From IMG/VR virus record IMGVR_UViG_2925903241_000001, positions 1 to 19,439 of that record: 19,439 nt of DNA, one strand, 5' to 3'. The translations under genes were made by a program, and so were the position numbers. Shown here piece by piece: positions 1-18,653 of this stretch. Under the pieces are notes generated by a model that worked only from the letters and a program-made list of their open reading frames with translations, had not been told where the DNA came from and did not search any database. Numbering within the stretch: position 1 is the stretch's first letter; each line of letters begins with the position of its first letter. The stretch comes from a virus. Lineage: Duplodnaviria; Heunggongvirae; Uroviricota; Caudoviricetes.

Positions 1-1011
1 TTATAACGTCACTCCGCCTTTTAGTGGATTCAGAGCGACGGCATTTTGCAGATAGTCAGGCGCAAGGTGCGCATAGGCCATCGTCTGCTGAATGCTCGCA
101 TGTCCCAGAATCTGTTGCAGTGCGATTATATTGCCCCCATTCATCATGAAATGGCTTGCGAATGTATGCCGCAGGATGTGGGTTGCCTGATTGGGTGGTA
201 TATCAGGTTTCACTCTGCGTAAAATCCCGCAAAATTTCTCATAATCAACTTTGAATAATTTGGCGCTGGCCTCCTCTTTAACTTTTTTCTCCAGTTCCTC
301 AGAAATCGGCACGGTTCGCTTTTTACCGTTTTTGGTTTTCAGGAAGGTAACCCTGCAATTTGTAATCTGTGCTGGTTTTAGCGTGGCAACTTCCGTCCAT
401 CTTCCTCCGGTGCTCAGACATAAAAGCGCGACAAGTAAGTCATCACCAGCCAAAACATTTAACAGTTTTTCGATTTCTGCTTTTTCCAGGAACGTCATTT
501 CAGGGTTGGCCTCCGCCAGTGGCGGCAGTCCGTGAATTGGGTGTTGCCCGGAAAATTCATCCAATTGAATTAATTTTGTGAACATGCCGGATAATCGGTA
601 CATGTCACGGTTTATCGTTGCGGCACTGATACCATCACGTAGTCGCATGGAACGATAATCCATCAAAGCCCTTTTGCTCATCCTGCTCACTGGTATATCA
701 CCTATGCCGCTGATGGTTTTGAGTAGATGATTAAACTCTTTTGTTCCATGCTCGTGGTTTTGCCCGTGATATTTCCACCAGATGTCCAGCAACTCACTCA
801 AAGTCCGGCGGTCTGCTCGCTGGCCTCCCCATTCTTTCTGACTGGCATTGGCGATTGTGTATCGCTCAAATGCTAGTGCTTCAGCTTTTCTTTCGAATTT
901 CCTGCGGATGCGTTTTCCGTCGCGACCGCGAGGTCTAATGTCCACTTCATAGCGACCATCATCGAGCTTCTTAATTGCCATAAGAAAGCCCTCCGGCGCT
1001 GTATTCACCAT
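1..1011 (-). CDS. int: P2-like phage integrase (tyrosine recombinase)
   Basis: 336-aa minus-strand ORF with stop at 1-3. Internal stretch MAIKKLDDGRYEVDIRP matches the P2 Int N-terminus as I recall it, so the true start may be the internal ATG near 981. C-terminal ...HxLRHTFAS...ILGH...YAH resembles the tyrosine-recombinase catalytic motifs. Sits at the prophage left end, transcribed leftward with the repressor as in P2. Confidence 0.9.
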   Translation of the reverse strand: MVNTAPEGFLMAIKKLDDGRYEVDIRPRGRDGKRIRRKFERKAEALAFERYTIANASQKEWGGQRADRRTLSELLDIWWKYHGQNHEHGTKEFNHLLKTISGIGDIPVSRMSKRALMDYRSMRLRDGISAATINRDMYRLSGMFTKLIQLDEFSGQHPIHGLPPLAEANPEMTFLEKAEIEKLLNVLAGDDLLVALLCLSTGGRWTEVATLKPAQITNCRVTFLKTKNGKKRTVPISEELEKKVKEEASAKLFKVDYEKFCGILRRVKPDIPPNQATHILRHTFASHFMMNGGNIIALQQILGHASIQQTMAYAHLAPDYLQNAVALNPLKGGVTL

Positions 1012-1050: not shown

Positions 1051-1344
1051 TTAGCCAATCCTTTTCGCGGAGTGGTTGGACTCTGTTGACTCTGGCCCAA
1101 TGTGCGCGAGAGCCGGTGCGATTTGTCCTGCGTCCGGCGCGGTTTTATCTGTCATAAGCCATAGAGCATATTTTTGGAATGTGGGATGCATAGTGATTTT
1201 TAGCAAAGCTGTGCCACCGGGTTCAAAGTTTCCTCCTTCATATTTTTTAAGTGTGCTTAGCGGTAACTCTATGATTTCACAGAATTTTGATTGGCTTAGC
1301 CCTTCAGCCTCACGCAAGGCCTTAATCTTTTCGCTTAATTTCAT
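1051..1344 (-). CDS. P2 C-like immunity repressor (small HTH protein)
   Basis: 97-aa ORF directly upstream of int on the same strand. C-terminal GQIAPALAH motif is shared with P2 C as I recall it. The N-terminus differs from P2 C, suggesting a different immunity type. Confidence 0.75.
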   Translation of the reverse strand: MKLSEKIKALREAEGLSQSKFCEIIELPLSTLKKYEGGNFEPGGTALLKITMHPTFQKYALWLMTDKTAPDAGQIAPALAHIGPESTESNHSAKRIG

Positions 1345-1465
1345 TTGACATGGTGCCTATATAGGGACTAAATCCCCTCAAAACTGGAACCTATATAGGT
1401 TCCATTGATTTGAGAATAAACCAGCATCTAAACGGTTTTGAGTGGTTTAGAAAGGGCTGGATCCT
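1345..1465. promoter_or_regulatory. Divergent early promoter/operator switch region between the repressor and cox
   Basis: 121-bp intergenic region between divergently oriented genes. Contains TTGACA at 1345-1350 abutting the repressor start codon, the palindrome CCTATATAGG at 1356-1365, and a perfect 18-bp palindrome GGAACCTATATAGGTTCC at 1387-1404. Exact -10/-35 assignment is not resolved by eye. Confidence 0.5.
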
Positions 1466-1480
1466 ATGAGGGTACCATAT

Positions 1481-1753
1481 ATGGACGCTGAAAATTATGT
1501 GATTCAGTATCCGCTTGATGCGGTTCATGTGGATAAATTTGCTGATTTATTAGGGAAGCCAAAGACAGCCGTCAGTGAAATGGTGAAGGCAAATAAATTA
1601 CCAATTATTGAATTGCGTGATCCTTGCAAACCGAAGGCTCGTGCCGGTGAAAAATGGGTTTTCATTCCTGAGTTTAATCGCGCTGTACGTGAGGCGTTTT
1701 ATAACCGACCGGTTGAACAGCGTGATGCATGGCTTTTGTGGATGGGGTTGTGA
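1481..1753 (+). CDS. cox: Cox-like excisionase / early regulator
   Basis: First rightward gene after the switch region. The ORF track starts at 1466, but the ATG at 1481 has a GAGGG Shine-Dalgarno about 9 nt upstream and gives 90 aa, close to P2 Cox. Product has the pattern ...GKLP.I...AG..WV..P.. ending ...WLLWMGL, similar to P2 Cox ...WLMWLGL from memory. Confidence 0.6.
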   Translation: MDAENYVIQYPLDAVHVDKFADLLGKPKTAVSEMVKANKLPIIELRDPCKPKARAGEKWVFIPEFNRAVREAFYNRPVEQRDAWLLWMGL

Positions 1754-3237: not shown

Positions 3238-3509
3238 GTATTCGTATTGAAATTGGCGAACGTTATGTCGTTACCAGTGACAGCTTTCAGTTTATTCTCC
3301 ACGAGAAAAAGAGAGCGGAAAGCGGTAAAAACGCCGGTCAGGAATGGCTGGCGGTGGTTGGTTATTACCCGAAATTAGGCCAGCTCGTTTCCGGCCTGAT
3401 GCATCACGATATTCTGACCGGAAGCGCAAAATCTTTTGCTGATTTAAACGCGCAGGTTGAGCAACTCAGCAAGCGTTGTTCAGAGGCTTTTGGCTCATAT
3501 GGCCGTTAA
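3234..3509 (+). CDS. Hypothetical early protein (P2 orf83 position)
   Basis: 91-aa ORF; its stop at 3507-3509 overlaps the A start codon at 3499. Confidence 0.55.
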   Translation: MSIRIEIGERYVVTSDSFQFILHEKKRAESGKNAGQEWLAVVGYYPKLGQLVSGLMHHDILTGSAKSFADLNAQVEQLSKRCSEAFGSYGR

Positions 3510-4869
3510 AGCCTCCGGGCGTTTTGTCCCTCCGTCAGCATTTACCGCAGGCACCGGTAAGGCGTTTACCGGTGCTTATGCATGGAACGCGCCACGCGAG
3601 GCTGTCGGGCGCGAAAGACCTCTTACACGTGACGAGATGCGTCAGGTGCAAGGTGTTTTATCCACGATTAACCGCCTGCCTTACTTTTTGCGCTCGCTGT
3701 TTACTTCACGCTATGACTACATCCGGCGCAATAAAAGCCCGGTGCACGGGTTTTATTTCCTCACATCTACTTTTCAGCGTCGTTTATGGCCGCGCATTGA
3801 GCGTGTGAATCAGCGCCATGAAATGAACACCGACGCGTCGTTGCTGTTTCTGGCAGAGCGTGACCACTATGCGCGCCTGCCGGGAATGAATGACAAGGAG
3901 CTGAAAAAGTTTGCCGCCCGTATCTCATCGCAGCTTTTCATGATGTATGAGGAACTCTGCGATGCATGGGTTGATGCGCATGGTGAAAAAGAATCGCTGT
4001 TTACGGATGAGGCGCAGGCTCACCTGTATGGTCATGTTGCTGGCGCTGCACGTGCTTTCAATATTTCCCCGCTCTACTGGAAAAAATACCGTAAAGGACA
4101 GATGACCACGAGGCAGGCATATTCTGCCATTGCCCGCCTGTTTAACGATGAGTGGTGGACTCATCAGCTTAAAGGCCAGCGTATGCGCTGGCATGAGGCG
4201 TTACTGATAGCTGTCGGGGAGGTCAATAAAGACCGTTCTCCTTATGCCAGTAAACACGCCATTCGTGATGTGCGTGCGCGCCGCCAGGCAAATCTGGAAT
4301 TTCTTAAATCGTGTGACCTTGAAAACAGGGAAACCGGCGAGCGCATCGACCTTATCAGTAAGGTGATGGGCAGTATTTCTAATCCTGAAATTCGCCGGAT
4401 GGAGCTGATGAACACCATTGCCGGTATTGAGCGTTACGCCGCCGCAGAGGGTGATGTGGGGATGTTTATCACGCTGACCGCGCCGTCAAAGTATCACCCG
4501 ACACGTCAGGTCGGAAAAGGCGAAAGTAAAACCGTTCAGCTTAATCACGGCTGGAACGATGAGGCATTTAATCCAAAGGATGCGCAGCGTTATCTCTGCC
4601 GTATCTGGAGCCTGATGCGCACGGCATTCAAGGATAATGATTTACAGGTCTACGGTTTGCGAGTCGTCGAGCCACACCACGACGGAACGCCGCACTGGCA
4701 TATGATGCTTTTTTGTCATCCACGCCAGCGTAACCAGATTATCGAAATCATGCGTCGCTATGCGCTCAAAGAGGATGGCGACGAAAGAGGTGCGTATTTT
4801 CATGAAAGGAGATCACTCAATAACTTCCATCGAGATCGGGTAATAACATTTGAACAGATCGCTGAATAA
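3499..4869 (+). pseudogene. A: Replication initiation endonuclease gpA (rolling-circle HUH nickase), 3' truncated by IS21-family insertion
   Basis: Likely start at MAVKASGRFVPP (3499), which is the P2 gpA N-terminus as I recall it. Phage-derived coding runs to about 4790 (roughly 431 codons, versus about 761 aa for P2 gpA). The final 25 codons of the ORF (...AYFHERRSLNNFHRDRVITFEQIAE) read into the IS terminal repeat. HUH motif PHWHMM is retained near aa 405-410. Confidence 0.85.
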
Positions 4870-4983
4870 CATCGATGGAGATCACTTTTGACTCATTTTG
4901 TTATTCAGTGATCTCCATCAATGTTATTGGAACTTCACAGGTGTGTTGATCTGTATCTTTTGCCATTCCGGTAAAGGATACCT

Positions 4984-6525
4984 ATGCCAACAGTTCCAAT
5001 TTCTATGAGAAAACTTAAAGAAATTCTTAGGCTTAAATACGGTGTTGGACTCAGCCATCGACAAATTGGTCGTAGTCTTGCAATCTCCCCTTCCGTTGTA
5101 TCCAGATATGCTAATCGGGCGGCTCAACTTGGCATAAAGCAGTGGCCCTTACCTACAGGATGGGATGATACAAAACTAAAACATGCGTTCCTTCAGACCC
5201 AGGTTAAGATGAAGAAGCACTCTCTGCCTGACTGGGCTACAGTACACCGGGAACTGCGTAATAAATGCGTGACGCTGCAGCTACTCTGGGAAGAATACTG
5301 TGAGCGTAATCCAGGCGGTTTTTACAGCTATAACCATTACTGCCGGATGTACCGTGAATGGCTCAAAACCACTTCACCATCAATGCGTCAGGTACATAAA
5401 GCTGGCGAAAAACTTTTCGTTGATTACTGTGGACCTACCGTTGGCGTTACCGACCCTGAGACCGGAGAAATAAGAACTGCTCAGGTCATCGTAGCTGTTC
5501 TCGGGGCATCAAGTTACACATGGGCAGAGGCCACCTGGTCTCAGCAGCTTGAAGACTGGGTGATGAGTCATGTTCGCTGCTTCCAGTGGTTGGGTGGCGT
5601 TCCTGAACTTGTTGTTCCGGACAATCTGAAAAGCGCCACATCCAGGGCATGTAAGTATGATCCTGACGTTAACCCTACCTACCAGCAGATGCTTGAGCAT
5701 TATAATGTCGCAGTTTTGCCTGCGCGGCCACGTAAACCGAAAGATAAAGCCAAAGCTGAAGTTGGCGTTCAGGTTGTTGAACGCTGGATCATGGCCCGAA
5801 TCAGGCATGAGATCTTCTACAGCCTTGCATCGCTTAATCAGCGCATTCGGGAGTTGCTGGAAAGACTGAATAACAAAATAATGCAGAAGTTGGGTTATTC
5901 ACGTGCAGAACTCTTCATCCAGCTTGATAAACCCGCACTGAAGCCTCTTCCTGAAGCCAGTTACAGTTACACCCTGGTGAAGAAAGTCAGAGTTCATGCC
6001 GATTACCACGTGGAAATCGACAAACATTACTACTCGGTTCCATGTTCGCTGTTAGGCCAGCAACTGGAAGCATGGATCTCCGGAGAACTGGTAAGACTCT
6101 TCAATCAGGGGCAGGAGGTTGCTGTGCACCCGCGCAAGCGTACTTATGGCTACAGTACCCGCAACGAGCACATGCCTGAAGCTCATCGACAGCATGCCAC
6201 CTGGACGCCAGAGCGTCTTCTGGAATGGGCGGGGCACATAGGCAGTGAAACTCATAGTTATGTGCTTCATATACTGAACTCTCGTCCACATCCGGAACAA
6301 AGCTATCGCTTCTGCCTTGGACTCCTGAACCTTCATAAAAAATACAGTAAAGCCAGACTTAATGCAGCATGTGCAAGAGCTCTGGAAACAAAGGTATGGC
6401 GTCTGTCAGGTATTAAATCGATCCTGGAAAAAGGTCTGGATAAACAACCTGTTCAGGATCCAAAACCAGATCTGTTATCCACGATGGAACACGAAAACGT
6501 ACGCGGCAGTGAGTATTACCACTGA
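4984..6525 (+). CDS. istA: IS21-family transposase IstA
   Basis: 513-aa ORF with N-terminal HTH-like region (LSHRQIGRSLAISPSVVSRYANRA) and a central integrase-type core, immediately followed by istB. Shine-Dalgarno AGGATA upstream. Confidence 0.9.
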   Translation: MPTVPISMRKLKEILRLKYGVGLSHRQIGRSLAISPSVVSRYANRAAQLGIKQWPLPTGWDDTKLKHAFLQTQVKMKKHSLPDWATVHRELRNKCVTLQLLWEEYCERNPGGFYSYNHYCRMYREWLKTTSPSMRQVHKAGEKLFVDYCGPTVGVTDPETGEIRTAQVIVAVLGASSYTWAEATWSQQLEDWVMSHVRCFQWLGGVPELVVPDNLKSATSRACKYDPDVNPTYQQMLEHYNVAVLPARPRKPKDKAKAEVGVQVVERWIMARIRHEIFYSLASLNQRIRELLERLNNKIMQKLGYSRAELFIQLDKPALKPLPEASYSYTLVKKVRVHADYHVEIDKHYYSVPCSLLGQQLEAWISGELVRLFNQGQEVAVHPRKRTYGYSTRNEHMPEAHRQHATWTPERLLEWAGHIGSETHSYVLHILNSRPHPEQSYRFCLGLLNLHKKYSKARLNAACARALETKVWRLSGIKSILEKGLDKQPVQDPKPDLLSTMEHENVRGSEYYH

Positions 6526-6536
6526 TACGGGATCCA

Positions 6537-7286
6537 ATGATGAATCATCTTTACGAACAACTGACCGCACTTAAACTCACCGGCTTCCGTGATGCGCTTA
6601 AAAAGCAACTTGCTCAACCGGGCACATACCAGGAGCTGGGCTTCGAAGAACGCCTGTCATTACTGACAGCAGAAGAACTAACCTGCCGTGAAAACAGGAA
6701 GGCAGAGCGTCTGATCAAACATGCACGGTTCAGACTTAATGCTGAGTTATCAAAGCTGGATTATCGTAACAATAGAGGGCTGGACAGGGCCCTCATCCGT
6801 TCACTCAGTCAGGGAAACTGGTTAACCCTGAAACAAAATATTTTACTGACCGGGGCCACCGGCAGCGGTAAAACGTTCCTGGCATGTGCACTTGGTCATA
6901 ATGCCTGCCGACAGGGATACAAGGTCTACTATTATCGCCTTAAAGCGCTGATGGAACAGTGCTATCAGGGGCATGCTGATGGAAGATACAGCAAACTTTT
7001 GACCAGGCTGAATAATAGCGATCTGCTGCTTCTGGATGACTGGGGGCTGGAACCTCTCTCATCAGAACAGCGTAGCGACCTGCTGGAAATAGTGGATCTG
7101 ATGTACCAACGAGGCTCAATCATCGTAGTGAGCCAGTTGCCGGTGGAAAACTGGTACAAAATGATCGGAGACTCCACACATGCGGATGCCATCCTAGATC
7201 GACTGGTTCATGGCAGTATCAAGATCGAACTTAAAGGAGAATCAATGCGGAAAATACAATCTCCGTTGACCGAAGGAGATCAGTGA
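6537..7286 (+). CDS. istB: IS21-family ATP-binding helper protein IstB
   Basis: 249-aa ORF with Walker A GATGSGKT and Walker B-like LLLLDDWG, 11 bp downstream of istA. Confidence 0.9.
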   Translation: MMNHLYEQLTALKLTGFRDALKKQLAQPGTYQELGFEERLSLLTAEELTCRENRKAERLIKHARFRLNAELSKLDYRNNRGLDRALIRSLSQGNWLTLKQNILLTGATGSGKTFLACALGHNACRQGYKVYYYRLKALMEQCYQGHADGRYSKLLTRLNNSDLLLLDDWGLEPLSSEQRSDLLEIVDLMYQRGSIIVVSQLPVENWYKMIGDSTHADAILDRLVHGSIKIELKGESMRKIQSPLTEGDQ

Positions 7287-7411
7287 AGGTAATTTAAAAA
7301 CGGTTCTGTGAAAGTGACACGAACCGATCTCCATCGATGTTACTCACCGATCTCCTTCACGGTAATACGCAAAGGCCACGGAACAGGCACACCAACGGGT
7401 AATACAGAGCC

Positions 7412-7437
7412 TTCTCCCAAACCAACGTTTATGAAAA
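7412..7437. other. Orphan gix/hix/pix-like invertase crossover site
   Basis: TTCTCCCAAACC-AA-CGTTTATGAAAA: a 26-bp imperfect palindrome (half-sites match 8/12 in inverse orientation) with central AA dinucleotide and AAACC..GGTTT-type core, resembling hixL and gix sites as I recall them. Lies 56 bp upstream of the invertase start, as in Gin/Hin systems. No partner site found in the window. Confidence 0.6.
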
Positions 7438-7517
7438 TGCAGAGATAACGGGCAAGTGGCATCATCTCCGGTTTTTATTCAGGGGGATGCTCATGCTTAT
7501 TGGCTATGTACGCGTGT

Positions 7518-7525
7518 CAACAAAT
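7518..7525. repeat. IS66 target-site duplication, left copy (CAACAAAT)
   Basis: 8-bp direct repeat immediately flanking the IS66-family left end; identical copy at 9981-9988. Confidence 0.9.
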
Positions 7526-7606
7526 GTAAGCGTCGTCTCAGCACCGTCTGGCAGATCCTGAAATTCCTGAGAGAATAGTGGACACCAAATATGGTGGACG
7601 CAATCC

Positions 7607-8011
7607 ATGAAATCATTAACCGCAGTGCGTAAAAAAAGCCCTAATTATCCCGTTGAGTTCAAAATCAAAATGGTTGAACTCTCGCATCGACCAGAGATCT
7701 CCGTAGCGCAACTCGCTCGTGAGCATGGGATCAACGATAATTTGCTGTTCAAGTGGCGCCAGTACTGGCGCGAAGGAAAACTACGTCCTCCTTCAACAAC
7801 AGAAAACAACGTGCCTGAGCTGCTCCCGATAACACTTGATGCCGAAGATGTTGTCCCTACAACCTCCCCCCGGTCACAACCTGTAGCTGCTGCGACACCT
7901 GAATCACTCAATATCAGCTGTGAAGTGACGTTCCGGCACGGATCACTCCGTCTGAATGGTGCCATCAGCGAAAATATCCTGAACCTGCTGATACGGGAGC
8001 TCAAACGTTGA
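7607..8011 (+). CDS. tnpA: IS66-family accessory protein TnpA (orfA)
   Basis: 134-aa ORF, first gene of the IS66 module; stop overlaps the tnpB start. Confidence 0.8.
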   Translation: MKSLTAVRKKSPNYPVEFKIKMVELSHRPEISVAQLAREHGINDNLLFKWRQYWREGKLRPPSTTENNVPELLPITLDAEDVVPTTSPRSQPVAAATPESLNISCEVTFRHGSLRLNGAISENILNLLIRELKR

Positions 8012-8355
8012 TCCCATTACCATCAGGGACAAAGATCTGGCTGGTCGCTGGCATCACCGATATGAGAAACGGCTTCAACGGCCTGGCGGCAAAGGTGCAG
8101 ACGACGCTGAAAGACGATCCGATGTCAGGTCACGTTTTTATCTTCCGTGGGCGTAATGGCAGTCAGGTAAAGCTCCTCTGGTCTACCGGCGATGGACTGT
8201 GTCTGCTGACCAAACGGCTGGAGCGCGGCCGCTTCGCCTGGCCGTCAGCCCGGGATGGCAAAGTGTTCCTCACACCGGCACAGCTGGCGATGCTGCTGGA
8301 AGGTATCGACTGGCGGCAGCCTAAAAGACTGCTTACGTCCCTGACTATGTTGTAA
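8008..8355 (+). CDS. tnpB: IS66-family accessory protein TnpB (orfB)
   Basis: 115-aa ORF MIPLPSGTKIWLVAGITDMR..., the conserved IS66 orfB-type protein by recall. Confidence 0.85.
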   Translation: MIPLPSGTKIWLVAGITDMRNGFNGLAAKVQTTLKDDPMSGHVFIFRGRNGSQVKLLWSTGDGLCLLTKRLERGRFAWPSARDGKVFLTPAQLAMLLEGIDWRQPKRLLTSLTML

Positions 8356-8403
8356 GCCTCTTTATCCTGGTCGACGCTGAATGAGCCTGGTAATATACCC
8401 GGT

Positions 8404-9939
8404 ATGAGCAGCTCACTTCCTGACGATATCAATGCACTGAAACGTCTCCTTGCCGAACAGGAGGCGCTGAACCGTGCCCTGCAGGAAAAGCTGAACGAGC
8501 GTGAACGCGAAATAGACCATCTGCAGGCACAGCTGGATAAGCTGCGCCGGATGAACTTCGGCAGCCGCTCGGAAAAAGTCTCCCGTCGTATCGCACAGAT
8601 GGAAGCTGACCTGAAGGCACTTCAGAAAGAAAGTGATACCCTTACCGGTCGGGTTGACGACCCGGCCGTGCAGCGCCCGCTGCGTCAAACCCGCACCCGC
8701 AAACCGTTCCCCGAATCACTCCCCCGCGATGAAAAACGGCTGCTGCCGGCAGCGTCATGCTGCCCGGAATGTGGAGGCTCGCTGAGCTATCTGGGTGAGG
8801 ATGCCGCCGAACAGCTGGAGCTGATGCGCAGCGCCTTCCGGGTTATCCGGACTGTACGTGAAAAGCATGCCTGTACTCAGTGCGATGCCATCGTGCAGGC
8901 CCCCGCGCCTTCACGGCCCATCGAGCGGGGTATCGCAGGACCGGGGCTGCTGGCCCGCGTGCTGATCTCAAAGTATGCAGAGCACACCCCGCTGTACCGC
9001 CAGTCTGAAATGTACGGCCGCCAGGGCGTGGAGCTGAGTCGTTCACTGCTGTCGGGCTGGGTGGATGCATGCTGCCGGCTACTGTCACCGCTGGAAGAAG
9101 CGCTTCAGGACTATGTGCTGACTGACGGTAAGCTCCATGCTGATGACACGCCTGTCCCGGTGCTGTTGCCAGGCAATAAGAAAACGAAGACCGGGCGGTT
9201 ATGGACCTACGTTCGTGACGACCGTAACGCCGGGTCAACGCTGGCGCCGGCGGTGTGGTTCGCTTACAGCCCGGACAGAAAAGGCATCCATCCGCAGACC
9301 CATCTTGCGGGGTTCAGTGGTGTACTGCAGGCGGATGCATACGCCGGGTTCAACGAGCTGTACCGGGATGGCCGGATAACGGAAGCCGCCTGTTGGGCTC
9401 ACGCCCGCCGTAAAATCCACGATGTGCACGTTCGCACCCCGTCAGCCCTGACGGAGGAAGCGCTGAAACGGATCGGCGAACTGTACGCCATCGAGGCAGA
9501 GATAAGGGGAATGACGGCGGAGCAGCGCCTTGCCGAACGTCAGTTGAAAACGAAACCGCTGCTGAAATCCCTGGAAAGCTGGCTGCGTGAAAAGATGAAA
9601 ACCCTGTCGCGACACTCAGAACTGGCGAAAGCGTTCGCATACGCCCTGAACCAGTGGCCGGCGCTGACGTACTATGCAGATGATGGCTGGGCTGAGGCGG
9701 ACAATAACATCGCTGAAAATGCGTTGCGGATGGTCAGTCTGGGCCGCAAAAACTACCTGTTCTTCGGTTCGGATCATGGAGGAGAGCGGGGAGCGCTGCT
9801 GTACAGCCTGATCGGGACGTGCAAACTGAACGGAGTGGAGCCAGAAAGCTACCTCCGCTATGTCCTTGACGTCATAGCCGACTGGCCGATAAACCGGGTC
9901 GGCGAACTGCTCCCCCTGGCGCGTAGCACTGCCGACTGA
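8404..9939 (+). CDS. tnpC: IS66-family transposase TnpC
   Basis: 511-aa ORF with N-terminal leucine-zipper/coiled-coil, a CxxC...CxxC zinc-finger region (CPECGG ... CTQCD) and a C-terminal DDE-type region, typical of IS66 transposases. Confidence 0.9.
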
Positions 9940-10608: not shown

Positions 10609-11799
10609 ATGAGTGACTATCATCACGGCGTGCAGGTGCTGGAGATTAACGACGGCACCCGCGTCATTTCCACCGTATCCACTGCCATTGTCGGCATGGT
10701 CTGCACGGCCAGCGATGCGGATGCGGAAACCTTCCCCCTCAATAAACCGGTGCTGATTACCAATGTGCAGAGCGCAATTGCAAAGGCTGGTAAAAAAGGC
10801 ACGCTGGCGGCGTCGTTACAGGCCATCGCCGACCAGTCAAAACCGGTCACCGTTGTCGTGCGTGTGGAAGACGGCACCGGTGACGACGAGGAAACGAAAC
10901 TCGCGCAGACCGTTTCCAATATCATCGGCACCACCGACGAAAACGGTCAGTACACCGGACTGAAAGCCCTGCTGGCGGCGGAGTCGGTAACCGGTGTTAA
11001 GCCGCGCATTCTCGGTGTGCCGGGACTGGACACCAAAGAGGTTGCCGTCGCACTGGCATCAGTCTGTCAGAAGCTGCGCGCTTTCGGGTATATCAGCGCA
11101 TGGGGCTGTAAAACCATTTCCGAGGTGAAAGCCTACCGCCAGAATTTCAGCCAGCGTGAGCTGATGGTCATCTGGCCGGATTTCCTCGCATGGGATACGG
11201 TCACCAGTACCACCGCCACCGCGTATGCCACCGCCCGTGCGCTGGGTCTGCGCGCTAAAATCGACCAGGAGCAGGGCTGGCATAAAACACTGTCCAACGT
11301 TGGGGTGAACGGTGTTACCGGCATCAGCGCATCTGTATTCTGGGATTTGCAGGAGTCCGGCACCGATGCTGACCTGCTGAATGAGTCAGGCGTCACAACG
11401 CTGATTCGCCGTGACGGTTTCCGCTTCTGGGGTAACCGTACCTGCTCTGATGACCCGCTGTTCCTCTTTGAAAACTACACCCGCACCGCGCAGGTGCTGG
11501 CCGACACGATGGCTGAGGCGCACATGTGGGCGGTGGACAAGCCCATCACCGCAACGCTGATTCGCGACATCGTTGATGGCATCAATGCCAAATTCCGAGA
11601 GCTGAAAACAAACGGCTATATCGTGGATGGCACATGCTGGTTCAGCGAAGAATCCAACGATGCGGAAACCCTCAAGGCCGGAAAACTGTATATCGACTAC
11701 GACTATACACCGGTGCCTCCTCTCGAAAACCTGACCCTGCGCCAGCGTATTACCGATAAATACCTGGCAAATCTGGTCACCTCGGTTAACAGCAATTAA
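10609..11799 (+). CDS. FI: Contractile tail sheath protein gpFI
   Basis: 396-aa ORF beginning MSDYHHGVQVLEINDGTRVISTVSTAIVGMV..., matching P2 FI in length and in sequence as far as I can recall. GGAG Shine-Dalgarno upstream. Confidence 0.93.
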   Translation: MSDYHHGVQVLEINDGTRVISTVSTAIVGMVCTASDADAETFPLNKPVLITNVQSAIAKAGKKGTLAASLQAIADQSKPVTVVVRVEDGTGDDEETKLAQTVSNIIGTTDENGQYTGLKALLAAESVTGVKPRILGVPGLDTKEVAVALASVCQKLRAFGYISAWGCKTISEVKAYRQNFSQRELMVIWPDFLAWDTVTSTTATAYATARALGLRAKIDQEQGWHKTLSNVGVNGVTGISASVFWDLQESGTDADLLNESGVTTLIRRDGFRFWGNRTCSDDPLFLFENYTRTAQVLADTMAEAHMWAVDKPITATLIRDIVDGINAKFRELKTNGYIVDGTCWFSEESNDAETLKAGKLYIDYDYTPVPPLENLTLRQRITDKYLANLVTSVNSN

Positions 11800-12662: not shown

Positions 12663-12814
12663 CGTTTCCGAAAAATCTCTCGGTCGATGACCTGATGGCG
12701 GATGTGGCAGTGATATTTCACTGGCCGCCATCAGAACTGTATCCCATGAGCCTGACCGAACTCATCACATGGCGCGAAAAGGCGCTCCGGCGAAGCGGAA
12801 ACACGAATGAGTAA
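12387..12814 (+). CDS. Tail assembly chaperone gpE+E' produced by programmed -1 frameshift
   Basis: Slippery site T TTT TTG at 12635-12641 in the E frame. The -1 frame from 12641 is open to TAA at 12812-14 and encodes VAELGAVTFPKNLSVDDLMADVAVIFHWPPSELYPMSLTELITWREKALRRSGNTNE. Fusion is 85 + 57 = 142 aa, equal to the P2 E+E' size as I recall. Stop overlaps the T start. Confidence 0.8.
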
Positions 12815-17283: not shown

Positions 17284-17805
17284 ATGTCAAAGCCAAAATA
17301 CCCTTTTGAAAAGCGCCTTGAAGTCGTGAATCACTACTTCACAACTGATGATGGTTACAGGATCATCTCGGCACGTTTTGGTGTCCCCCGAACCCAGGTC
17401 AGGACATGGGTTGCCCTCTATGAAAAACATGGAGAAAAAGGTTTAATTCCCAAACCTAAAGGCGTTAGTGCTGATCCAGAGTTGCGTATTAAGGTCGTGA
17501 AAGCTGTGATCGAGCAGCACATGTCCCTTAATCAGGCTGCTGCTCACTTTATGCTTGCTGGTAGTGGTTCTGTAGCCAGGTGGCTGAAGGTCTATGAAGA
17601 GCGCGGAGAAGCTGGTTTACGCGCGCTCAAGATTGGCACCAAAAGAAACATTGCAATATCAGTTGATCCAGAAAAAGCGGCATCAGCATTGGAGCTGTCA
17701 AAAGACCGACGCATTGAGGATCTTGAAAGGCAAGTTCGATTTCTTGAAACGCGGCTTATGTATCTAAAAAAGCTGAAAGCCTTAGCTCATCCCACGAAAA
17801 AGTGA
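17284..17805 (+). CDS. insJ: IS150 transposase OrfA (InsJ)
   Basis: 173-aa ORF with N-terminal HTH; contains the A AAA AAG frameshift heptamer at 17766-17772 near its 3' end. Confidence 0.92.
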   Translation: MSKPKYPFEKRLEVVNHYFTTDDGYRIISARFGVPRTQVRTWVALYEKHGEKGLIPKPKGVSADPELRIKVVKAVIEQHMSLNQAAAHFMLAGSGSVARWLKVYEERGEAGLRALKIGTKRNIAISVDPEKAASALELSKDRRIEDLERQVRFLETRLMYLKKLKALAHPTKK

Positions 17806-18653
17806 AAGTACTCAACGAGCTAAGGCAGTTTTATCCTCTTGATGAGCTTCTCAGGGCTGCGGAGATACCGCGCAGTACGTTTTATTATCATCTAAAGGCT
17901 CTCAGCAAGCCTGACAAGTATGCGGACGTTAAAAAGCGTATTAGTGAGATTTATCACGAGAATAGAGGCCGATACGGATACCGTAGGGTAACGCTGTCTC
18001 TTCATCGAGAAGGGAAACAGATTAACCATAAAGCTGTTCAGCGCCTGATGGGAACCCTCTCACTTAAAGCAGCGATTAAGGTCAAGCGATACCGCTCTTA
18101 CAGAGGAGAGGTAGGGCAAACCGCCCCTAATGTTCTCCAAAGAGATTTCAAGGCTACGCGGCCAAACGAGAAGTGGGTTACCGATGTTACTGAATTTGCA
18201 GTCAATGGGCGCAAGCTGTATTTGTCTCCAGTAATAGATCTCTTCAACAACGAAGTTATTTCTTACAGCCTTTCGGAAAGACCAGTGATGAACATGGTTG
18301 AGAATATGCTCGATCAGGCATTCAAAAAGCTTAATCCTCACGAGCATCCTGTTCTGCACTCTGACCAGGGATGGCAGTATCGTATGAGAAGATATCAAAA
18401 TATCCTTAAAGAACATGGTATTAAACAAAGCATGTCCAGAAAAGGCAATTGTCTGGATAATGCTGTGGTGGAGTGTTTCTTTGGAACCTTAAAGTCGGAG
18501 TGTTTTTATCTTGATGAGTTCAGTAATATAAGCGAACTGAAGGATGCTGTTACGGAATATATTGAATACTACAACAGCAGAAGAATTAGCCTGAAATTAA
18601 AAGGTCTGACTCCAATTGAATATCGGAATCAGACCTATATGCCTCGTGTTTAA
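17802..18653 (+). CDS. insK: IS150 transposase OrfB (InsK), DDE catalytic domain; expressed mainly as an InsJK fusion by -1 frameshift
   Basis: 283-aa ORF in the -1 frame relative to insJ, with an IS3-family integrase-core DDE region (...WVTDVTEF...HSDQGWQY...). Confidence 0.92.

Follow-up and report, generated by a model that had tools for sequence, protein, structure and literature searches.

Palindromic Sites in the Predicted Two-Part Operator of an L-413C-Type P2-Like Prophage Remnant

Introduction

Whether the C repressor of a P2-like element may read palindromic operator sites, instead of the direct repeats recognized in the model phages, is the question raised by the short spacer that separates the divergent genes C and cox in the DNA analyzed here, a stretch of 19,439 nucleotides hereafter referred to as the window. 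The C repressor of P2 recognizes two 8-bp direct repeats located 22 bp apart and that of P2 Hy dis 8-bp repeats located 26 bp apart, while the repressor of Wphi recognizes 10-bp repeats 34 bp apart, and the repeats of both P2 and Wphi flank the -10 element of the early promoter Pe (PMC1904268). In the literature covered, mapped operators are described for P2, P2 Hy dis and Wphi only. A preliminary description of the window had regarded the spacer as an immunity switch region, and this view is upheld: the spacer belongs to the switch of a P2-like element, and the best candidates for its operators are the two palindromes.

The Prophage Remnant and its Immunity Region

According to the list of open reading frames and to the Pfam matches, the gene order, int and C followed by the divergent cox, B and small early genes, is that of P2, and the spacer between C and cox is short, extending from 1345 to 1480 in the list. 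The genes that border the region are the following:

1 to 1011, minus strand: integrase gene, an open reading frame with the Pfam domains Int_N and Phage_integrase.
1051 to 1344, minus strand: C immunity repressor of 97 aa with a helix-turn-helix, matching the P2 C structure and Pfam HTH_3.
1481 to 1753, plus strand: cox, matching Pfam Phage_Cox (E=1.2e-23); its product shares 82% identity with the Cox protein of Wphi.

The region represents the C / Pe-Pc / cox switch of a P2-like prophage in decay, and the element as a whole is a remnant riddled with insertion sequences (IS) that keeps an intact immunity region. The integrase gene adjoins cpxP in an identical prophage of Escherichia coli M217. 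In the stretch 3457-8364 of the window, gene A, devoted to replication, is interrupted by an IS21-family element (istA at 4984-6525, istB at 6537-7286), and the junction between gene A and the IS is identical in E. coli M217, where the IS is annotated as ISEc12 and the prophage lies beside cpxP; downstream of gene A, the M217 prophage departs from the window. Other transposase genes are IS66-like (7607-8011 and 8404-9939) and IS3-like (17284-18653). After the IS66-like element the window passes directly to tail genes (sheath at 10609, tape measure at 12807, U and D), so that the head, lysis and baseplate genes seem to have been deleted.

The DNA from 1000 to 1800 is 99.0-99.8% identical to that of L-413C, R18C, HQ103, FSL SP-004, vB_YpM_50, P24B2 and P2_AC1, and equally close (99.0-99.8%) to a phage named "P2" that was induced from E. 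coli O157:H43 T22. Among 5426 complete E. coli genomes, 419 (~8%) possess the operator region, with one copy in each of them.

The C Repressor and its Immunity Type

The C repressor aligns with the structure of P2 C (2xcj/2l49) over residues 3-97 with E=1.9e-21, and shares 56% identity with Wphi C and 43% with P2 C. Most of this identity is located in the C-terminal half of the protein, and the divergent N-terminus that had been ascribed to it corresponds to the helix-turn-helix region, with a recognition helix at about residues 29-37 (LSTLKKYEG). Alignment with P2 C shows that four of the five residues proposed as base-reading in the P2 repressor (PMC2995052) differ in the repressor of the window.

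An immunity group comprises phages whose C proteins are at least 95% identical to each other (Nilsson et al., PMC3448106). With a C protein 100% identical to that of L-413C and a C-cox spacer that can be aligned with its own, the window belongs to the L-413C group. The same C protein, again with 100% identity, is found in R18C, FSL SP-004, P24B2 and others, the spacers differing at 1-4 positions. The window lies outside the Wphi immunity class III, its C being 56% identical and its repeats being other than TATTGGTGAC, and according to the 95% rule of Nilsson et al. the element should be heteroimmune to both P2 and Wphi. The distinct immunity specificity announced by the preliminary description is thus correct with respect to P2, from which the window differs by its C protein (43% identity) and its operators, but it does not amount to a new type. 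The immunity is of the L-413C type, which was known before and is common: C and spacer are identical or nearly so in L-413C, R18C and FSL SP-004 and in the 419 of 5426 E. coli genomes. Immunity classes I-VII were reportedly defined by Karlsson et al. in 2006, in a paper that probably depicts the repeats of each class. In HQ103, C is frameshifted and the operators are intact; a full-length C homologue supplied in trans stops plaque formation by HQ103.

The Early Promoter and the Elements of the Spacer

The elements recognized or predicted in the spacer are listed below, O1 and O2 being the two candidate operator sites:

1345 to 1350, plus strand: Pe -35 element TTGACA, abutting the C start codon; its position is that of the Pe -35 annotated in P2 and of the one in Wphi, and it lies inside the HQ103 Pe-GFP fragment.
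1351 to 1370, no strand assigned: O1, a 20-bp pseudo-palindrome made of TGGTGCCTAT and ATAGGGACTA with the core CCTATATAGG at 1356-1365; 8/10 symmetric pairs; it fills the Pe spacer.
1369 to 1374, plus strand: predicted Pe -10 element TAAATC (TAAATT in most copies), 18 bp after the -35 element, placed by alignment with relatives and Wphi.
1385 to 1404, no strand assigned: O2, a perfect 20-bp palindrome made of TGGAACCTAT and ATAGGTTCCA with its core at 1390-1399; 10/10 symmetric pairs; on the transcript predicted for Pe it would span approximately +5 to +24.
1407 to 1464, minus strand: stretch that should contain Pc and the sites bound by Cox; it equals the HQ103 'Pc' fragment, and the P2 record shows Pc at an analogous location.

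As had been noticed, TTGACA abuts the repressor start, the start codon of C being read as CAT at 1342-1344 and the hexamer following at 1345-1350. Judging from the letters and from the alignments, the early promoter Pe would consist of TTGACA, an 18-bp spacer and TAAAT(T/C), and relatives carry at the same offset a conserved TAAATT, TTAAAT or TATATT. A 61-bp fragment of HQ103, equivalent by its primers to positions 1320-1380 of the window, drives GFP expression and is sufficient for Pe activity. A consensus promoter scan of 1250-1560 gave no promoter-like match on either strand, Pe being missed because TAAATC is devoid of the final T.

At position 1374 the window has a C where nearly all other copies have a T, which changes the predicted -10 element from TAAATT to TAAATC with loss of the conserved final T. 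The exact 90-nt sequence of the window occurs in 79 of the 419 E. coli genomes, and the C at 1374 may have weakened the promoter in a prophage lineage undergoing decay.

Anatomy of the Two Palindromes

The core CCTATATAGG is found at 1356-1365 and 1390-1399, in exact agreement with the two copies 34 bp apart (start to start) of the preliminary description, and the window contains no further match, even when one mismatch is accepted. Shuffling gives an expectation of 0.23 matches, and two or more matches occurred in 5 of 200 shuffles. The second copy had been placed inside a perfect palindrome of 18 bp; the palindrome is real, but its length is actually 20 bp (TGGAACCTATATAGGTTCCA, 1385-1404). 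It is the longest perfect palindrome of the 19.4-kb window, and palindromes of at least 20 bp arose in 4 of 300 first-order Markov simulations (p ~0.013). The direct-repeat unit common to O1 and O2 reaches 15 nt, with identity at 13 of the 15 positions. Elsewhere in the window, the second-longest perfect palindrome (16 bp, 7756-7771) is located within the IS66-like region.

Conservation and Substitutions in Lytic Derivatives

Among the 37 IMG/VR contigs with the C-start pattern, 36 have this type of spacer and 35 of these 36 have both cores identical, the sole exception (L106) bearing both of the R18C substitutions described below. All 419 chromosomal copies of E. coli show at most two differences in 90 nt, one of which is usually the 1374 polymorphism, and in the three most divergent copies that were read the differences affect 1351, 1352 or 1375, none of which belongs to a core. 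The cores are invariant in every prophage copy read.

Two lytic phages of the group depart from this rule. L-413C is described as a clear-plaque, lytic mutant of the temperate phage L-413, and R18C was reported as virulent, its failure to lysogenise being an assertion that its authors did not test. Both encode a C repressor identical to that of the window. Since the parents of L-413C and R18C are unsequenced, a consensus of ten copies over 801 nt (int-C-cox) served as a proxy and as the reference for their substitutions. R18C (L122, MN016939) exhibits two private substitutions in the 801 nt, one in each core, G1364T in O1 and C1390T in O2. L-413C (L002, AY251033) exhibits four, three of which are C1356A in the O1 core, T1373C in the -10 element and C1402A in an arm of O2. 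Of these six private substitutions, five are located in a single stretch of 60 nt, 1345-1404 (binomial P=1.3e-5), and the other seven phages of the comparison show no change in O1 or O2.

In the experiments performed with P2 and Wphi, repression was kept when one half-site was mutated and abolished when both were mutated, and the double-site substitutions of L-413C and R18C correspond to the pattern expected from these experiments. The virulence of R18C, a point unaddressed in the paper describing this phage, would be explained by the location of both private substitutions in the operator cores. More generally, the substitution of both predicted operators offers a simple explanation for the fact that R18C and L-413C, the latter used in plague diagnostics, are lytic despite an intact repressor.

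Proposed Mode of Repression

It is rather probable that the stretch 1345-1404 comprises the Pe promoter of a P2-like prophage and a two-part operator for the C repressor that the prophage itself encodes. The invariant cores, the substitutions in the lytic derivatives and the half-sites shared by elements with the same recognition helix all point to this operator assignment, and C would be expected to bind O1 and O2 physically. O1 (1351-1370) would fill the Pe spacer and O2 (1385-1404) would overlie the predicted start of the transcript. Each 20-bp site would consist of two inverted half-sites with the consensus TGGnnCCTAT, and would probably accommodate one symmetric C dimer. Two such dimers, with their centers 34 bp apart, may cooperate as in Wphi and keep RNA polymerase off Pe. 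Exclusion of the polymerase from Pe would silence cox-B-A and confer immunity to phages of the L-413C type.

Dyad Symmetry and Direct Repeats

The preliminary description opposed palindromic operators in the window to the direct repeats of P2. This opposition is a false one, because a palindromic 10-mer that is present twice is also a direct repeat, so that the sites are both; the dyad symmetry itself is real and is shared by relatives. Non-palindromic direct repeats, the hallmark of P2, are not what the window contains, since each repeat is palindromic (10/10 in O2, 8/10 in O1), yet the two copies are also direct repeats. As each copy is its own inverted repeat and both copies are direct repeats of each other, the sequence alone cannot separate the two readings, and the relatives have to be brought into the argument.

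The window contributes four half-sites, TGGTGCCTAT, TAGTCCCTAT, TGGAACCTAT and TGGAACCTAT. Together with 20 half-sites from five relatives, they give a set of 24 half-sites from six loci and five genera, all with a STLKKYE-type helix, in which positions 1-8 read T19 G18 G21 n n C21 C20 T18, positions 9-10 and partly position 8 of the consensus being set by the way the sites were centered. The left and right halves fit TGGnnCCTAT alike in the six loci. Relatives with the STLKKYE-type helix (in Escherichia, Kosakonia, Enterobacter, Dryocola, Hafnia and Pseudomonas) carry CCTATATAGG-like cores at the same two positions, and relatives with other recognition helices have other repeats. The substitutions of the lytic phages strike left halves (1356, 1390) as well as right halves (1364, 1402), at the conserved half-site positions 3, 6, 6 and 7 and never at the variable positions 4-5.

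Symmetry at the O2 position extends beyond this class. In 38 non-identical relatives of the same promoter layout, which share ancestry and are thus not independent, the mean best palindrome score at the O2 position is 6.39/10 versus 4.67 +/- 0.16 in shuffles, and a score of at least 8/10 is reached in nine of the 38 loci versus 0.17 expected. At the O1 position the enrichment in the 38 relatives is weaker (5.26 versus 4.34 +/- 0.17 in shuffles). Among the relatives with asymmetric sites, the specific half is direct in Wphi and in the loci L034, L040 and L019, and inverted in the loci L010, L011, L021 and L012 and, by eye, in the Yersinia phage P37 (L003 660-693). Direct and inverted orientations sometimes occur with the same recognition helix (L034 and L040 for the direct orientation). 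The inverted half-sites in L021 are TTGGTTCCGA and TCGGAACCAG. The center-to-center spacing in relatives ranges from 24 to 34 bp, in agreement with reports that Wphi C tolerates an altered spacing.

The most serious alternative is that the sites act purely as direct repeats in the style of P2 and Wphi, one subunit of the dimer reading a 10-bp repeat and the other binding non-specifically, with the palindrome being incidental. The repeat length and the spacing are indeed those of Wphi, the repeated unit extends asymmetrically to 15 nt, and all seven known classes seem to recognize direct repeats (PMC2995052). Moreover, a Kosakonia locus (L006) combines a perfect 16-nt direct repeat with a dyad symmetry of 6-7/10 only, which, like the 8/10 of O1, indicates that strict symmetry is not required. 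However, O2 is symmetric over 20 bp (p ~0.013 in the simulations mentioned above), both halves fit TGGnnCCTAT in the six loci, and the lytic phages are substituted in left and right halves. The occurrence of the specific half in direct (L034, L040) or inverted (L010, L021, L012) orientation also suits symmetric dimers better than an oriented array, and the crystal structure of P2 C likewise shows a symmetric dimer (PMC2995052). Recognition as direct repeats alone is accordingly considered rather unlikely.

Four observations made on these sites and on those of the relatives favor a true dyad-symmetric recognition, each site being read by a symmetric dimer. The chances are about even that the C dimers of this class each recognize a 20-bp site that is symmetric throughout, being composed of two TGGnnCCTAT half-sites, and that the sites of the Wphi-like branch are symmetric, asymmetric-direct or asymmetric-inverted. 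If this holds true, the recognition of non-palindromic direct repeats, regarded in the literature as the hallmark of the P2-family repressors, would be a peculiarity of a few model phages rather than a property of the family, and the class would offer a natural system for solving a symmetric C-DNA complex.

The Pc Stretch, the Cox Start and the TATATA Cores

The scan of 1250-1560 gave no consensus promoter on the minus strand that could correspond to Pc. Reading of the sequence, guided by the analogy with P2 and by the HQ103 primers, yields weak minus-strand candidates only, TTTCTA-N17-TAGATG and TGgTTTATT. The HQ103 'Pc' reporter fragment, equivalent to 1407-1464, gave no GFP. An A/G polymorphism occurs at position 1426, with A in the window, HQ103, FSL SP-004 and eight IMG/VR copies, and G in most others; being located inside the inactive HQ103 Pc fragment, it may be the "Pc mutation" mentioned by the HQ103 authors.

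The cox open reading frame opens with an ATG at 1466 (95 aa), and most related records start at 1481 (90 aa), a position preceded by GAGGG and aligned with the start of Wphi Cox. A third perfect palindrome, of 10 bp (CCATATATGG, 1475-1484), overlaps this likely cox start codon (ATG 1481); its center is located 85 bp from that of O2, and six of its positions differ from the operator core. Palindromes of 10 bp are frequent by chance.

The preliminary description had also suggested that the TATATA cores of O1 and O2 double as -10 elements, which would then belong to additional or alternative promoters, such as a Pc running leftward from O2. TATATA does agree with TATAAT at 4/6 positions, and the search for Pc in this class did not locate it. 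The idea is not borne out, the scan of 1250-1560 having given no promoter-like match on either strand and Pe being accounted for by TTGACA-N18-TAAAT(T/C). Furthermore, TATATA is devoid of the final T of the -10 consensus, the best -35 partners found by reading the sequence around the cores score 3/6 at most, P2 Pc is located about 50 bp downstream of the Pe -10 element, outside O2, in the P2 record, and the HQ103 authors put Pc at the equivalent of 1407-1464. A promoter function of the TATATA cores is for these reasons very unlikely.

Other Readings of the Palindromes

O2 might act not as a protein site but as an RNA hairpin of the Pe leader, in the role of an attenuator, a terminator or a stability element, or as a DNA cruciform. 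A scan flags 1385-1404 plus TTGATTTGAG as terminator-like, and the O2 RNA hairpin has a folding energy of -13.1 kcal/mol (z-score -3.75). However, any perfect palindrome folds well, and both the flag and the folding follow from O2 being a palindrome. The U-tract after O2 is poor, the tail UUGAUUUGAG being weak and the stem merely the palindrome. O1, which the hairpin leaves unexplained, lies upstream of the start predicted for Pe and is no more stable when folded than its shuffles (z = -0.5), yet it has the same core and is substituted in both lytic phages. In addition, relatives retain the half-site consensus with imperfect stems, and an Rfam scan of 1000-2000 with E up to 1 gave no match. 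A hairpin or cruciform function is highly improbable, and the reading of O2 as a terminator is considered unlikely.

It is equally hard to believe that the palindromes, AT-rich as they are, serve as sites for a protein other than C (H-NS, Cox, Int or IHF): H-NS shifts the HQ103 Pe and Pc fragments in EMSA but is not sequence-specific enough to account for the exact conservation of a 10-mer or for the match between sites and C helix, P2 Cox exerts its action on Pc, which is located downstream of the C operators, and the Cox of the window is 82% identical to that of Wphi, yet the repeats at these positions are unrelated. The preferred reading remains that of sites for the C repressor.

Significance of the Predicted Operator

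The window sequence is already present in public phage records, and the results represent a refinement within a well-understood system, not a new mechanism. They predict, at the level of single bases, the operator of a P2-type immunity group that ranks among the commonest in E. coli, and what may be new is that such a prediction is backed by natural mutants of the virulent type. It may also be new that the recognition of direct repeats is not invariable within the family. The only unusual feature of this immunity type is that each site is symmetric, instead of being an asymmetric direct repeat.

Comparison with Known Systems

The closest known elements are the phages L-413C, R18C, HQ103 and FSL SP-004, which share ~99% DNA identity with the window over int-C-cox and belong to the same immunity type. 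L-413C and R18C differ from the window by their substitutions in both palindromes, and the window differs from all four phages by its own substitution T1374C in the Pe -10 element and by being an IS-riddled remnant.

The comparison with the operators of P2 and Wphi, which had been proposed as a check, shows that the window has the architecture and the dimensions of Wphi with another sequence. The Wphi record shows TATTGGTGAC at L001 1346-1355 and 1380-1389, after CAT-TTGACA, with TATATT between the two copies. Both elements possess a C homologue of 97 aa, a -35 element TTGACA that abuts the C start, and 10-bp repeats 34 bp apart that flank the -10 element; their Cox proteins are 82% identical, and L-413C, which has the same immunity region as the window, shares the attP core of Wphi. 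They differ in the repeat itself, the non-palindromic TATTGGTGAC in Wphi versus CCTATATAGG in the window, and in the dyad symmetry of the 20-bp sites, which is 7/10 and 5/10 in Wphi versus 8/10 and 10/10 in the window.

With P2, the window has in common the C family, the gene order, operators that flank the Pe -10 element (the order in the P2 record being -35, O1, -10, O2), a -35 element at the C start and the sequence TTGACATGGTG. In contrast, the P2 half-sites are non-palindromic 8-bp sequences, and C is only 43% identical. The repeats of the window are not those of P2 O1 and O2, P2 having GTTTAGAT twice, 22 bp apart. Unlike the lambda-type cI repressors, C comprises 97 aa only, with the helix-turn-helix domain alone detected and without a C-terminal domain for oligomerisation and RecA-dependent self-cleavage.

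From a structural point of view, the dimer of P2 C is near to P22 c2, 434 cI and C.Esp1396I (Massad et al., PMC2995052), and C.Esp1396I binds directly repeated palindromic sites, with one dimer per site (PMC2995052). The operator predicted in the window, with its two palindromes of 18-20 bp, resembles the layout of the C.Esp1396I sites, a likeness that does not imply membership at the sequence level; the center-to-center distance is 15 bp for C.Esp1396I versus 34 bp in the window. In this respect, the class bears on the old puzzle of a symmetric P2 C dimer facing asymmetric repeats, since here the sites themselves are symmetric.
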